From contig WVZK01000134.1 in the NCBI GenBank assembly GCA_011772475.1, positions 70,793 through 134,792 on the forward strand: 64,000 nt of DNA, in the 5' to 3' direction. Position numbers and translations under genes: made by a program. Of the stretch, positions 36,787-45,203 are shown one piece after another (the first letter of the stretch is position 1; every line of letters begins with the position of its first letter). The notes under the pieces are model-generated. The model was not told the DNA's origin. It did no database searches and saw only the letters and a list, made by a program, of their open reading frames with translations. This stretch comes from Candidatus Aminicenantes bacterium (GTDB taxonomy: Bacteria; Acidobacteriota; Aminicenantia; Aminicenantales; Aminicenantaceae).

Positions 36787-38292
36787 TCATTTTTTCTTTC
36801 TTTTGCTCAGGTATTTGTGCATCTCGGCCGCAGCGACCCGGGCGTCACCCATGGCAAGAATAACTGTTGCTCCACCCCGAATGATATCTCCTCCCGCATA
36901 AACTCCTTCTATGCTGGTAGCCATTGTGTCCCAATCGACTTCTACATTTCCCCATTTGCCTACGTTGAGTTGAGGAGTTGTCTGGGGAATCAAAGGATTA
37001 GGACTCTGGCCGATGGCTACCACAACCATATCTACTTCCATGATAAACTCTGAGCCTTCGATAGGGACTGGCCGCCGCCTTCCTGAAGAATCAGGTTCTC
37101 CGAGCTCCATCCTCAAGCATTCCATAGCCTTAACCCGGCCTTTTTCATCCGCGATGTATCTTATTGGAGTTGTCAAAAAGTGAAACTCGATGCCTTCCTC
37201 TTCCCCATGGTTAACCTCCTCCACTCTTGCTGGCATTTCAACTCTTGAACGACGGTAGACTATGGCCGCCAATTCTGCTCCCAGTCTCTTAGCTGTTCTG
37301 ACAGAATCCATGGCCACATTCCCACCGCCTATGACAGCAACTCTCTTCCCCAAAAATACAGGCGTATCATAATCAGGAAACTCATAGGCCTTCATCAGGT
37401 TTACCCTTGTCAAATATTCGTTGGCCGAGTAGATCCCCACGAGGTTTTCTCCGGGAATCCTCATGAAATTCGGCAACCCTGCCCCTGTCCCTATGAAAAA
37501 AGCGTCATACCCATCCTTCTTTAGATCGTCAAGCGTTGCTGTTAAGCCCACTACAAAATTTTCCCTCAACTCTACACCTAGCTTTTCAAGATACTCTACT
37601 TCTGACTTGAGGATTCTTTTGGGCAACCTGAATTCTGGAATCCCGTAGATTAATACTCCACCGGAAACGTGAAGAGCTTCGAAAATAGTAACCTTATGGC
37701 CGTTTCTCGCCATCTCACCGGCAACAGTCAAACCTGCCGGCCCAGCTCCGATAACCGCCACTTTCTTACCTGATGCTGGCTTGATTTGAGGGATAAAAAC
37801 CTCTCCCTGCTGGCTCTCATAATCTGAAACAAATCTCTCCAAATTTCCTATCTTCACACCTTCGCCTTTTGATTTTTTTATGTTGCATGTCTCTTCGCAT
37901 TGAACTTCTTGAGGGCATACACGGCCACAAATAGCTGGAAGGCTGTTTGTCTCTTTTATTTTCCTAACACTCTGGACATAATCGCCTATCTCAATAAGTT
38001 TTATAAAGGTAGGAATATCGATTCCTACAGGACAGCCCATAACACACCCAGGATTAGCACAATCCAGGCATCTTTGCGCTTCCTTCTTGGCCAGCTCAGC
38101 ATCTAAACCAAGGTTAACTTCATTGAAATCCTTGGATCTCTCTTCTGGCGATCTCTCCCGCATCTTCTGGGGAGAGATCTTAATCCTTTCTTTTGCTGGA
38201 ATAGACTTCCGCAACTCCTTCCGCCAGTCCTTGTTAAATTCTGCCCTGAGCGTCTCTTTTAGCTCAGGTTGCATTTCTTTCTTCTCAGCCAT
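36787..38292 (-). CDS. NfnB/SudA/GltD-like NADPH-binding FAD/FeS subunit (glutamate synthase small-subunit family)
   Basis: N-terminal [20 protein letters not shown] 2x[4Fe-4S] region, then two dinucleotide-binding motifs [11 protein letters not shown] and [12 protein letters not shown]. Has a roughly 60-aa basic N-terminal extension. Confidence 0.8.
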
Positions 38293-38303
38293 GTTTTTCT
38301 TCT

Positions 38304-39140
38304 CTATCGTGGAAAATTATTCTTTTCCCAATGACACAGAGATTGGATTTCGTCCTCAAAATACGATTTTCGCCTTGAGAATAGCTCTTCCCAATCTACC
38401 AAATGACCGTCAAAATCAGGTCCGTCCACGCAAGCAAATTTTGTTTTGCCGTCTATGGTTACCCGACAAGCCCCACACATACCTGTTCCATCCACCATAA
38501 TCGGATTAAGGCTGACAGAGGTTTCTATTCCATGGGGCTTTGTTGCCTCAGAACAGGTATACATAAGGTAAGTGCAGCCAATCGAGATCACTTTATGGAT
38601 TTTGGATCCCTTTTTTATGATATTGTTGAGAGTTTTGGGAATATAATCCTTACAGTTGTAGTAACTGTCCCGAGCTGAAACCAAAAATTGGTCACTTACA
38701 GCCCGAAGTTTCTCTTCCCAGTAAAGAAGATAATTCGCCTTAACATCTAATAATGTAATAATCTTATTTCCTTTTTCTTTTAAGGCACGCGCTATTGGGT
38801 ATATGGCTGCAATCCCAAAACAGCCTCCCGCCAACAGGACGGTTCCGTATTTTTTTATTTCAGAAGGCTTTCCCAAAGGACCGACAAAAACAGGAATTTC
38901 GTCGTCGGTTTCGATAAGAGAAAGCTTATGGGTAGAAGTACCCACTACCATAAAAATCGAAGTAACTGAGCCTTTTTTATTGTCCCAATCAGCGATTGTC
39001 AAAGGAATTCTTTCTCCTTTCTCATCCGGCATGACGATGACAAACTGACCTGGCTTTGATTTCTGCGCTATTTCAGGCGCATGGACCTCAAGAAGATGAA
39101 TATTTGGGACCAAACGCTCTCTTCTCAAAATTTTCGCCAT
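38304..39140 (-). CDS. NfnA/SudB/PyrK-like FAD plus [2Fe-2S] electron-transfer subunit
   Basis: PyrK-like fold (PGQFVIV FAD-binding start, then an NAD(P)-binding domain) and C-terminal Cys cluster MCGACRV...CVDGP. Confidence 0.75.
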
Positions 39141-43617: not shown

Positions 43618-44075
43618 TCACTACTTTTTCTTTTTTCCTGTTTTAATTTCTTAATGATCTCGTCGACTTCTCTCGTCTTCATCTGCCCATGATAATCTCC
43701 ATCGGCAATCGCGATCGGCCCCAAGGCACAAGCTCCAACACAGTTCACGGTCTCCAAGGTAAACTGATTATCCTCAGATGTTTCTCCAGCTTTTATTCCC
43801 AGCTTTCTCTCGAATTCATCAAGGATCATCGGGGCTCCCCTCACGTGGCAGGCTGTTCCCATACAGATTGTTATCAGGTGCTCGCCCCGTGGTTTGAGGG
43901 TAAAGGCTTTATAGAAGGTGAGAACTCCGAATATCTCACTCTCAGAGATTTTTAATTCCCTAGATATCTGAGAAATCATCTGGGCCGGGATATAACCGAA
44001 TTTACTCTGCGCATCATGAAGCAGGTGAATTAGCTCTCTTTGAACCTTCGTATACTCACTCATAATTTTTTCCAT
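43614..44075 (-). CDS. NuoE/HydC/HoxE-like thioredoxin-fold [2Fe-2S] subunit
   Basis: CMGTACHVRG ... CVGACALGP four-Cys pattern and a roughly 150-aa length. Confidence 0.85.
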   Translation of the reverse strand: MEKIMSEYTKVQRELIHLLHDAQSKFGYIPAQMISQISRELKISESEIFGVLTFYKAFTLKPRGEHLITICMGTACHVRGAPMILDEFERKLGIKAGETSEDNQFTLETVNCVGACALGPIAIADGDYHGQMKTREVDEIIKKLKQEKRKSSE

Positions 44076-44087
44076 TTTCTGCAGCCC

Positions 44088-45203
44088 TTATAAAGATGAA
44101 AGGAAGTCCTCATAATCCAACCCAAATCTTTCCGCAATATTCTTTCTGGCTATTTTTCCGCGGAAGACATAAACACCCCTCGCCAGAGATCTGTTTGCTT
44201 TCAAACACTTCTCAAGCCCTAATTCTCCCATCTCGAGCAGACAGGGAGCAACCAAATTGGACAGGACTTTTGTTGAAGTCCGGCTTACAGAAGATGTGAT
44301 GTTGGGAACACAATAATGAATTACTCCCTCTTCAACATAAGTCGGCTGCTCAAGTGTCGTTAAGCGGCTTGTCTCGATACAGCCTCCCTGGTCGATGGCC
44401 AGATCAATGATGATTGAACCTTTTTTCATGGTCTTAACCATATCCTTCGTTATCATGATAGGAGCTTTCTCGCCGGGTCGAAGCACCGCTCCTATCAGAA
44501 TATCTGCAACTCTTGTCATTCGCGCTAGATTGTAGTTGCTGGCGAAGAGAGTAATCAATCTGCCTGAAGTTATCTCCTCTAATTCTCTCAACCTGTCCAT
44601 ATGTCGGCCCAAAGCAATAGTATGCGCTCCGGCTCCGAGCATACTCTTAATAGCACTTTTGGCCAATACACCACTTCCGACTACAACAGCGGTAACAGGA
44701 GGAACGCTTACCACACCGCCGATGATAACGCCTCGGCCGCCCTGACTGGTTTGAAGATAGTGACCTGATATGGCCAGACACATTTGGCCCGCAATTTCGC
44801 TTAGACTCTCGATAAAAGGAAGAACTTCGTTCTCTTCCTGGACTATTTCATAACCGATAATTGTAGCTTTTTTCTTAAGGAGAACTTCAATATTGCACTT
44901 TCTTGTTACAGCTAAATGATGAAATCCGAATAAAATTTGGTCTTTTTTAACGAGCTTACATTCCTCTTCGTCGAGGGGCGATATATTGAGCACAATATCT
45001 GAGCGCCCAAAAACTTCATCTTTTGTAAAAACAATTTCTGCGCCTTGATCAGCATACTCTTCGTTGGCGTATCCAGCTTTCAACCCGGTTCCCGCCTGCA
45101 CATATACTTTGTGCCCTTTTTCTGCAAGCAAAGAAACACTGCTAGGAGTCAAACCAGCTCTGTTCTCTATTTTGGAGCTTTCATTTATAACACCAACGTT
45201 CAA
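44088..45203 (-). CDS. ald: Alanine dehydrogenase / PNT (transhydrogenase dI) family NAD(H)-binding protein; most likely alanine dehydrogenase
   Basis: AlaDH/PNT N-domain start MNVGVINESSKIENRAGLTP and Rossmann motif AVVVGSGVLAKSAIKSMLGAGA. A 371-aa protein, 13 bp upstream of the nuoE-like gene. Confidence 0.6.
   Translation of the reverse strand: MNVGVINESSKIENRAGLTPSSVSLLAEKGHKVYVQAGTGLKAGYANEEYADQGAEIVFTKDEVFGRSDIVLNISPLDEEECKLVKKDQILFGFHHLAVTRKCNIEVLLKKKATIIGYEIVQEENEVLPFIESLSEIAGQMCLAISGHYLQTSQGGRGVIIGGVVSVPPVTAVVVGSGVLAKSAIKSMLGAGAHTIALGRHMDRLRELEEITSGRLITLFASNYNLARMTRVADILIGAVLRPGEKAPIMITKDMVKTMKKGSIIIDLAIDQGGCIETSRLTTLEQPTYVEEGVIHYCVPNITSSVSRTSTKVLSNLVAPCLLEMGELGLEKCLKANRSLARGVYVFRGKIARKNIAERFGLDYEDFLSSL

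Follow-up and report, generated by a model that had tools for sequence, protein, structure and literature searches.

Do the six tightly packed genes on the minus strand of a Candidatus Aminicenantes contig encode a single electron-bifurcating complex, or enzymes that are merely transcribed together? The locus lies in a 64,000-nucleotide stretch of contig WVZK01000134.1 (assembly GCA_011772475.1, positions 70,793 to 134,792), called the window in the following, and all coordinates refer to this stretch unless a related locus is named. An earlier sequence-based note (the original prediction) had placed six genes between 45203 and 36787, joined by 4-bp overlaps or gaps of at most 13 bp, and had proposed a confurcating complex for NADH, NADPH and ferredoxin. 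All six open reading frames (ORFs) are present there on the minus strand, and the junctions are, in gene order, a 12-bp gap, overlaps of 4, 4 and 1 bp, and an 11-bp gap. Domain calls with Pfam and NCBIfam confirmed the predicted subunit identities (AlaDh_PNT, NuoE, NuoF, NuoG/Fdh with MopB, PyrK/NfnS and GltD/NfnL), and residue-level comparisons to solved structures were made by HMMER alignment. As judged from comparison with related loci, the conserved unit is not the whole operon but the five genes bfuC-bfuB-bfuA-nfnS-nfnL, where BfuC, BfuB and BfuA denote the NuoE-, NuoF- and NuoG-like proteins (Schut et al. 2022, PMC9304861). We consider it probable, though by no means certain, that these five genes encode one soluble multi-subunit flavin/iron-sulfur (FeS) complex through which the NADH, NADPH and ferredoxin pools are reversibly connected. 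The features of the operon are:

44088..45203, minus strand: ald-like gene (371 amino acids (aa), TTG start), AlaDh_PNT by Pfam
43614..44075, minus strand: bfuC, NuoE/HoxE-type [2Fe-2S] subunit (153 aa), full-length match to PF01257
41701..43617, minus strand: bfuB, bifurcating-type NuoF-like subunit (638 aa), by Pfam domains and HydB alignment
39140..41704, minus strand: bfuA, subunit derived from NuoG/Fdh-alpha, with a putatively dead MopB domain (854 aa), by Pfam and FdsA alignment
41312..41428, minus strand: Cys-rich insertion in BfuA, residues 93-131, by alignment
40586..40621, minus strand: degenerate Fdh active-site stretch in BfuA, residues 362-373, NVDSSYRFSPLP, by alignment to FdsA
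38304..39140, minus strand: nfnS, small Nfn subunit (278 aa), PyrK-like, by NF004862
36787..38292, minus strand: nfnL, large Nfn subunit (501 aa), GltD-like, by TIGR01316
38167..38292, minus strand: basic N-terminal extension of NfnL, about residues 1-42, by ortholog comparison

Subunits and predicted cofactor sites

BfuC matches PF01257 over its full length (167 bits, Pfam), with HoxE, NuoE and Fdh-gamma as the nearest NCBIfam models, and its gene sits upstream of bfuB in all related modules. BfuB contains Complex1_51K, NADH_4Fe-4S, SLBB, Fer4 dicluster and 2Fe-2S_thioredx domains (Pfam), arranged as an N-terminal 2Fe-2S domain, a site for flavin mononucleotide (FMN) and NADH, an N3-type [4Fe-4S] cluster and a C-terminal 2x[4Fe-4S] domain. 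Instead of the three clusters originally assigned to it, the subunit has four cluster-binding regions. Aligned end to end with NiFe-HydB of Acetomicrobium mobile (7t2r_B) it scored 850 bits, both extra domains being aligned, and it reached 803 bits against HydB 7q4v_B and 747 bits against Caldicellulosiruptor saccharolyticus (Csac) NfnB 9bov_B. The N-terminal 2Fe-2S and the C-terminal dicluster domains are missing from the non-bifurcating NuoF and FdsB (PMC9304861). The features by which Schut et al. 2022 define the Bfu family are found in all three subunits: the NuoF FMN/NADH domain, SLBB, NADH_4Fe-4S (B1) and the C-terminal dicluster (B3/B4) in BfuB, a NuoE-type thioredoxin-like [2Fe-2S] subunit encoded beside it, and 2Fe-2S and 4Fe-4S ferredoxin-type domains in BfuA. 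Judged by domain content, nothing is missing from BfuBC as a bifurcating-type core: it has FMN, an NAD(H) site and a ferredoxin-facing dicluster domain, the coupling itself being predicted.

The two distal genes encode a full Nfn pair. NfnS scored 360 bits against NF004862 (cutoff 220), 313 bits against Pyrococcus furiosus NfnI-S (5jca_S) and 236 bits against Thermotoga maritima NfnA (4ylf_A), and it has the domains and the cluster motif of the small NfnSL subunit, namely PyrK-like domains for flavin adenine dinucleotide (FAD) and NAD and a ...FACVDGP [2Fe-2S] motif of the Asp/Cys3 type that aligns with both structures. NfnL scored 626 bits against TIGR01316 (cutoff 472); T. maritima NfnB (4ylf_B) aligns to it with 563 bits and P. 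furiosus NfnI-L (5jca_L) with 545 bits. Its 2x[4Fe-4S] cluster motifs and the YRRS NADPH motif align, as is characteristic of the large subunit. At the level of motifs, everything needed to bind the cofactors of the crystallised bifurcating NfnI/NfnAB is present in NfnSL. The scores of BfuB, NfnS and NfnL thus bear out the earlier statement that a HydABC/NuoEFG-type module is encoded together with a complete NfnAB module.

NfnL begins with a basic N-terminal extension. It had been noticed before and put at roughly 60 residues, but compared with the T. maritima and P. furiosus enzymes it measures about 35 aa. The Aminicenantes orthologs share the consensus KKEMxPELKExLRxxFNxDWRxxLRK, and the extension was not found in the T. 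maritima and P. furiosus enzymes or in the module-linked NfnL of other phyla. The NCBIfam model for fused NfnAB, PRK12778, covers it from residue 17. We considered and rejected the extension as a docking element, as it is Aminicenantes-specific, resembles a fusion linker and does not define the module.

BfuA combines Fer2_4, NADH-G_4Fe-4S_3 (two stretches), Fer4_Nqo3, Molybdop_Fe4S4, Molybdopterin and Molydop_binding domains (Pfam) and has a counterpart of 100% identity in a Candidatus Aminicenantes metagenome-assembled genome (MAG) at NCBI. Its FeS cysteines are invariant (22 of 22) across 20 members of the Aminicenantes clade. The MopB part gives another picture: against the Fdh-alpha model TIGR01591 BfuA scored 345 bits, below the cutoff of 666, and in the HMMER alignment Ser370-Pro371 lie opposite the catalytic Cys386-His387 of Rhodobacter capsulatus FdsA (6tg9_A), in agreement with the earlier remark that a Cys/Sec-His motif is lacking. 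Comparison of 80 genome loci showed that the Fdh relatives outside the clade have a rigid CAR[LV]-[Sec/Cys]-His motif, Sec being selenocysteine, together with (L/M)RGQNN(V/I)QG. In clade members the active-site stretch is by contrast hypervariable, insertions and deletions included, the Sec position being Ser in most members, Ala in loci L014 and L015 and Phe in L023, and LRG is all that remains of the Arg motif in BfuA. The pterin-contact motifs are degraded as well (GTNTTxAHP to G[EATS]D[IL]xxSHP, VANP[RK] to VASP[TAE]), and the domain-III motif survives. With the catalytic Sec/Cys-His pair and the Arg motif lost, BfuA falls outside the formate dehydrogenases of the Fdh-alpha and Fdh-Bfu types. 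Because the catalytic pair is lost, formate is probably not a substrate, and formate oxidation by BfuA is very unlikely; the formate link suggested originally would rather describe a likely ancestral state. BfuA is, as far as its motifs tell, an FeS wire without a catalytic site. The Fdh-like domain of Csac NfnA likewise has an incomplete pterin site, which is empty in the cryo-electron microscopy (cryo-EM) map (PMC11829005), and in both proteins this domain has an apparently non-functional pterin site.

The MopB domains are the fastest-evolving part of BfuA, with 35-62% identity compared with 65-98% for its FeS domains, while BfuB stays at 70-94% identity; the Bfu core is therefore apparently still under selection without formate. 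Many pterin-dead BfuA proteins carry the public label 'formate dehydrogenase alpha subunit' or 'formate dehydrogenase (NADP+) alpha subunit' (P0004, P0009, P0013 and others; P0269, P0285). These labels are probably a systematic misannotation, because the catalytic residues are missing.

In the N-terminal part of BfuA the N5/A3-type cluster motif is tandemly duplicated: H93-x3-C97-x2-C100-x5-C106 is followed, after 15 residues, by C122-x2-C125-x5-C131. None of the three added cysteines varies among the 20 clade members or the insertion-bearing relatives outside the phylum, and nowhere else is BfuA as conserved within the clade as at residues 81-140 (80-98% identity). Alignments of the genome and metagenome sets revealed no such insertion in standard Fdh-type relatives of BfuA. 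An exhaustive representative search with the BfuA FeS domain returned 1,262 cluster representatives (50% identity) below E = 1e-30, and manual reading of the 150 best of these found the insertion in about 145. A first, stricter pattern had caught 132 of the 150 and was the source of a set of 107 full-length representatives, none of which has the Fdh catalytic motifs. By these counts pterin-dead insertion-type BfuA is a large family, with named members from Aminicenantes, Acidobacteriota and Promethearchaeia. In Csac NfnA (9bov_A) an 'LSEH-x3-C' element at residues 82-118 is followed by an NfnL-like domain of about 440 residues and then by 'C-x2-C-x5-C-QL' from residue 542, i.e. the NfnL-like domain of NfnABC/Stn is inserted exactly where BfuA of the window has its extra Cys site. 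The insertion likely binds an additional cluster and serves as electron port to NfnSL.

A different insertion, of about 25 residues, is found in the Desulfobacteraceae-type BfuA of L035 (7485-8309), where it lies in the N-terminal 2Fe-2S domain between Cys ligands 1 and 2. Many metagenome gene calls of about 396 aa are probably this Desulfobacteraceae BfuA type, ended at the Sec codon.

Recurrence of the five-gene module

The five-gene module recurs in Chloroflexota, Desulfobacterales, Syntrophorhabdus and Asgard archaea; five or more distant lineages have it, with stop and start codons that overlap. The BfuA active site is a Sec, encoded by TGA, with an adjoining His in L022, a Dehalococcoidales chromosome, and Cys-His in L035, a Desulfobacteraceae MAG; in Syntrophorhabdus aromaticivorans (L048), where the genes are joined by 4-bp overlaps, it is deleted. 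Further modules are present in contigs reached by profile search (L081, L082, L083, the P0269 locus, L086 and L088), and no fewer than 11 metagenome loci add to them. Within the Aminicenantes clade the 1-bp overlap between the bfuA stop and the nfnS start is kept in all loci, down to 51% BfuA identity. In three protein clusters (P0331, P0334 and P0378) BfuA and NfnS are a single polypeptide; the fused NfnS part is 47% identical to NfnS of the window over the full length (E = 2e-78), and the loci read bfuC-bfuB-[bfuA::nfnS]-nfnL. The gene set, originally presented as unusual, is thus a common gene order in metagenomes of several phyla. A common order already assigned to a characterised enzyme had been named as grounds for giving up the proposal; the order proved common, but no characterised enzyme was found for it.

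In the genome sample nfnS lies downstream in 24 of 24 insertion-type loci with enough downstream sequence, as opposed to 0 of 54 other loci. We do not take these counts as near-proof of a linkage, as there are metagenome insertion-type loci without nfnSL and most of the 24 share ancestry. The metagenome sample was deliberately diverse, and insertion-type loci were counted if they had at least 3 kb of downstream sequence. Downstream of the bfuA gene they contain:

nfnS, usually with nfnL: 11 loci
an NfnS-like gene only: 2 loci
nfnL only: 1 locus
an FNR-like NAD_binding_1 protein: 2 loci
thioredoxin: 2 loci
nothing relevant: 4 loci

Beside standard-type BfuA, nfnS was found at none of about 20 metagenome loci. 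The commonest partner of insertion-type BfuA is thus an FNR-fold flavoprotein of the NfnS type, and the insertion appears to be necessary, not sufficient, for the partnership with NfnSL.

Several loci depart from the five-gene pattern. In L022 (4846-7938) the NuoF core of BfuB is fused to a GltD/NfnL-like domain (Fer4_20 and Pyr_redox_2), which takes the place of the ferredoxin dicluster domain in this protein of 1,030 aa; the locus also encodes NfnS and NfnL as separate proteins as well as a Sec-FdhA. A similar ORF, 1,029 aa long, lies upstream of the BfuA gene in L110. The pterin-dead insertion-type BfuA proteins P0374, P0382, P0385 and that of L089 (2171-5149) end in a fused 2x[4Fe-4S] ferredoxin domain, and L089, with no nfnSL downstream, is a BfuABC without an evident third-substrate module. 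A thioredoxin gene follows insertion-type bfuCBA in L116 (9558-9878) and, by ORF similarity, in L123 (9520-9873), and a gene for an FNR-like NAD_binding_1 flavoprotein does so in L112 (9880-10668), the same ORF being present in L113; these operons hint at further uncharacterised classes of Bfu partners. Tandem duplicated Fdh-alpha/BfuA-like genes with intact catalytic motifs occur in L105 (6962-12567) and L120 (1-5197), and those of L105 are followed by an NfnS-like gene but no nfnL, and have no bfuBC upstream of them.

The leading gene and the surroundings of the operon

The ald-like protein, an atypical member of the alanine dehydrogenase (AlaDH) family, scored 285 bits against Thermus thermophilus AlaDH and 340.5 bits against the L-alanine dehydrogenase equivalog TIGR00518, short of the cutoff of 391.85. 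The AlaDH active site, which we take to be Arg15, Lys75, His96 and Asp270 in Mycobacterium tuberculosis numbering, with an acidic residue at the end of beta-2 presumably selecting NAD, is altered: Arg15, His96 and Asp270 are kept, Ser75 stands in for Lys75, and at the Asp198 position there is Gly199 with Arg next after it. The two changes, shared by 17 orthologs, suggest a different substrate and possibly use of NADP(H). The protein is no full-length PntA with dII transmembrane helices: PntA (dI) models match residues 1-197 only, with 92-123 bits against cutoffs of 383-444, and the ORF and domain listing contained no pntB-like gene in the operon.

The original prediction counted the ald/PNT-like gene as part of the complex. 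We regard it, on the comparative evidence, as a lineage-specific neighbour and not as the gene of a subunit, because it was not found in any out-of-phylum module or in the Aminicenantes locus L014 and is displaced in L088, where the cytochrome-c biogenesis genes ResB and CcsA lie between it and bfuC. It is probably co-transcribed with the operon, and the enzyme may feed the same pyridine-nucleotide pool as the complex. NAD(P)H-generating dehydrogenase genes flank the module elsewhere, i.e. glutamate dehydrogenase and isocitrate dehydrogenase in L084 (12111-14763) and malic enzyme and isocitrate dehydrogenase in L086 (1-3267). In this small sample, the flanking genes fit a role in NADPH re-oxidation during fermentation.

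Upstream the operon is flanked by amidohydrolase and Na/Ca exchanger genes and downstream by acetyl-CoA hydrolase/transferase, RNase HII and AlaX-like genes, all unrelated to it. Synteny throughout Aminicenantes includes the acetyl-CoA hydrolase/transferase gene (35289-36599), which in the window follows nfnL after 187 bp; the matching position in L081 is occupied by a CoA-transferase gene unrelated to it. A consensus scan gave no convincing minus-strand terminator at any of the operon junctions, and a promoter scan no sigma-70-like site on the minus strand in 45204..45546, the counts of both scans being at shuffle level. The promoter upstream of the ald-like gene is presumed from the 343-bp gap only. 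Rfam (gathering threshold) and tRNA scans of the whole window gave no matches.

45204..45546, minus strand: upstream intergenic region, presumed promoter and repeats, by 343-bp gap and repeat searches
29743-29761, 29802-29820, 33211-33229, 33254-33272, 33309-33327, 36749-36767, 45403-45421, 45462-45480, 45494-45512, 57502-57520: copies of a 19-bp repeat

The 19-bp repeat, TTGATRAATCAMRYCCCTA, has the palindromic core TTGAT-NN-ATCAA and occurs in 10 copies in the window where 0.03 are expected. The copies checked (33.2-33.3 kb, 36.7 kb and 45.4-45.5 kb) are intergenic; three lie 5' of the operon and one just downstream of nfnL. As an operator of a redox regulator the repeat was rejected, for it is scattered over intergenic regions of the window and, with 1 match in 89, nearly missing at orthologous loci; it resembles a genome-specific element of the repetitive extragenic palindromic (REP) kind rather than a conserved operator. 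Two direct copies of a 25-bp repeat, AATGGGGCCWGGCCCCATTTCCTAC, at 45310-45334 and 45354-45378, each with the hairpin GGGGCCnGGCCCC, are confined to the spacer between the Na/Ca exchanger and the ald-like gene and could be the terminator of the exchanger gene or a regulatory site.

One complex or several enzymes

The Bfu core requires a third-substrate module (Schut et al. 2022, PMC9304861). In the complex that we propose NfnSL would be this module, since it is the sole candidate in the operon, and NADP(H) bound at the NfnL flavin would be the third substrate, as it is for NfnABC/Stn. NfnS would be the subunit contacting BfuA, because both are one polypeptide in some archaea, with electrons likely passing through the extra Cys site of BfuA. 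Overall the complex would catalyse NADPH + NAD+ + Fd(ox) <-> NADP+ + NADH + Fd(red), where Fd is ferredoxin, running toward NADPH oxidation in a fermenter of amino acids or organic acids. The lineage probably descends from a selenocysteine formate dehydrogenase version of the module that survives in Chloroflexota and Desulfobacterales, as the Sec- and Cys-containing relatives of the module indicate. A bolder version, which we advance only tentatively and consider rather improbable, has one BfuABC-NfnSL particle with two bifurcation centres, the FAD of NfnL and the FMN/FeS 'flavobicluster' of Bfu, wired via the extra Cys site; it would be either a tandem-bifurcating transhydrogenase with new stoichiometry or control, or a surviving intermediate between NfnSL and NfnABC/Stn. 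The series proposed with this version would lead from Sec-Fdh-Bfu with NfnSL to pterin-dead Bfu with NfnSL, and from there to the BfuA::NfnS fusion or to the insertion of NfnL into BfuA.

A single confurcating complex, as proposed originally, gains from the recurrence across phyla, the BfuA::NfnS fusions and the conserved Cys insertion. Several points nevertheless weigh against it. Physical association in Aminicenantes is argued indirectly, from gene adjacency and from fusions elsewhere, and the whole 10-gene neighbourhood is syntenic within Aminicenantes, so that conservation in the phylum is weak evidence of functional linkage. Much of the co-occurrence may stem from a single ancestral event. 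Insertion-type BfuA loci without nfnSL exist (L087, L089, L110, L114, L116, L119, L120 and L123), and at some of the insertion-type loci thioredoxin, an FNR-like protein or a fused ferredoxin domain takes its place. Characterised NfnSL is a complete, self-sufficient enzyme, and NfnSL of the window keeps all standalone features; pairwise NfnL identities between module-linked and standalone T. maritima and P. furiosus proteins are 55-62% for all pairs, with no signal of a separate module-linked group. Finally, it is hard to see what a complex would gain energetically from having two NAD(H) sites and two potential bifurcation sites.

Much of this is what one would expect if the operon encoded two independent enzymes that are merely co-transcribed, a standalone NfnSL and a BfuABC whose partner is encoded elsewhere. 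Their co-expression would be sensible, both acting on the NADH and ferredoxin pools, and the motifs of NfnS and NfnL are indistinguishable from those of the crystallised standalone enzymes, to which the proteins are as similar as to module-linked homologues. We see in this a genuine but unlikely alternative: it leaves the fusions in three protein clusters, the overlapping stop and start codons in at least five distant lineages and the complete lack of nfnS beside standard-type BfuA (0 of 54 and 0 of about 20 loci) unaccounted for, and purifying selection still acts on the core although BfuA itself lacks a catalytic domain. Far less probable, in our view very unlikely, is a six-subunit complex with the AlaDH/PNT-dI-like protein as an extra NAD(P)(H)-binding or amino-acid-oxidising subunit. 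It draws on the 12-bp gap between the ald-like gene and bfuC, kept in most Aminicenantes loci, on the altered substrate Lys and cofactor-specificity residues, which mark a distinct conserved subfamily, and on the dehydrogenase genes flanking the module in L084 and L086. Its weakness is the distribution of the gene described above; in addition, no fusion and no FeS or flavin electron-transfer cofactor ties the protein to the complex, and AlaDH-family enzymes are soluble homo-oligomers. That BfuA still catalyses a reaction as a molybdo- or tungsto-pterin enzyme, its metal being bound by Ser370 in the manner of DMSO reductase, and that NAD(P)+ and ferredoxin are thereby coupled to formate or some other small substrate, we hold to be extremely improbable. 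The MopB fold is of full length, the Fe4S4 cluster, CV[KR]GRF, the Arg in LRG and the domain-III motif are conserved, and most clade members have Ser at the Sec position, but this Ser gives way to Ala and Phe within a hypervariable stretch, the His is lost, the GTNTT and ANPR pterin contacts are degraded in the fastest-evolving domains, the catalytic motifs are absent from all 107 full-length insertion-type representatives, and the homologous domain of Csac NfnA had no pterin in the cryo-EM map (PMC11829005). We therefore continue with the single five-subunit complex as the preferred reading.

Known relatives had been said to carry only subsets of these subunits, and we likewise found no characterised enzyme with the subunit set of the window. 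The system, as predicted, works most like Nfn-Bfu (NfnABC/StnABC; Sporomusa ovata 8oh5, Csac 9bov, Thermococcus sibiricus 9n5u) and lacks the fusion that defines that family. Both have a bifurcating BfuBC core, an Fdh/NuoG-like BfuA domain with an incomplete pterin site, and an NfnL/GltD-type FAD module that binds NADP(H), and the predicted reaction, linking NADH, NADPH and ferredoxin, is alike. In NfnABC/Stn, however, the NfnL-like domain is fused inside BfuA and the enzyme has three subunits, whereas NfnL of the window is a separate full-length canonical subunit and its BfuA has no Fer4_20 or Pyr_redox_2 domain (Pfam) but the 3-Cys insertion in place of the NfnL-like domain. The window moreover has a complete NfnS with FAD, [2Fe-2S] and an NAD(H) site, which NfnABC lacks, and its BfuB keeps the N-terminal 2Fe-2S domain and is nearer to the hydrogenase HydB than to NfnB (850 vs 747 bits). 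NfnSL (NfnAB/NfnI) of T. maritima and P. furiosus has an NfnL about 58-60% identical to that of the window, with all cofactor and NADPH motifs aligned, and differs by lacking the N-terminal extension. The characterised NfnSL is a free heterodimer, whereas the nfnSL genes of the window are translationally coupled to the BfuABC core and have homologues fused to BfuA in some lineages, which argues that the module-encoded NfnSL is not a free heterodimer.

Type 1 Fdh-Bfu (e.g. of Carboxydothermus hydrogenoformans, predicted) and HylABC-Fdh of Gottschalkia acidurici share the BfuA domain order and the BfuC-BfuB-BfuA gene order with the window, but the latter has no Sec/Cys-His, degraded pterin motifs, an extra Cys insertion and nfnSL appended. 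NiFe-HydABCSL of A. mobile, a Type 3 Bfu enzyme, provides with its HydB the closest solved homologue of BfuB; in both systems BfuA (that of the window as predicted) conducts electrons without catalysing a reaction, and a pair of extra subunits provides the third substrate, the two subunits of a NiFe hydrogenase there and NfnSL here. In the scheme of Schut et al. the window system would be a Type-3-like Bfu with NfnSL as extra subunits. Bam-Bfu class II benzoyl-CoA reductase is a precedent for joining a Bfu module and a module of another bifurcating family (HdrA) in one complex, although partner, substrate and subunit set are entirely different.

The openly searchable literature (the text and text supplement of Schut et al. 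2022, two NfnABC structure papers, an Nfn distribution review, a survey of the evolution of flavin-based electron bifurcation, and genome papers), with subscription-only papers such as Nobu et al. 2015 on Syntrophorhabdus outside its scope, contained no description of a BfuABC+NfnSL module; an Asgard paper lists 'FdhA-HydBC' and 'NfnAB' as separate items. The five-gene Bfu-NfnSL operon is widespread and uncharacterised, and it is apparently undescribed.

Electron bifurcation is currently described as the property of four unrelated enzyme families, and the separate evolution of NfnSL and NfnABC for the same reaction has been called remarkable (PMC12018979). The operon family described here joins, and sometimes fuses, two bifurcating families that are regarded as unrelated. 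The formate dehydrogenase label of the pterin-dead members would yield false calls of formate metabolism in metagenome reconstructions. If the five subunits do form one complex, this would explain the pterin-less 'Fdh relic' in NfnABC and Stn and would bring a new class of partners into the Bfu family. It would also remodel the view of how NADH, NADPH and ferredoxin are balanced in abundant uncultured anaerobes, among them Aminicenantes, Dehalococcoidia, Desulfobacterales, Syntrophorhabdia and Asgard archaea.

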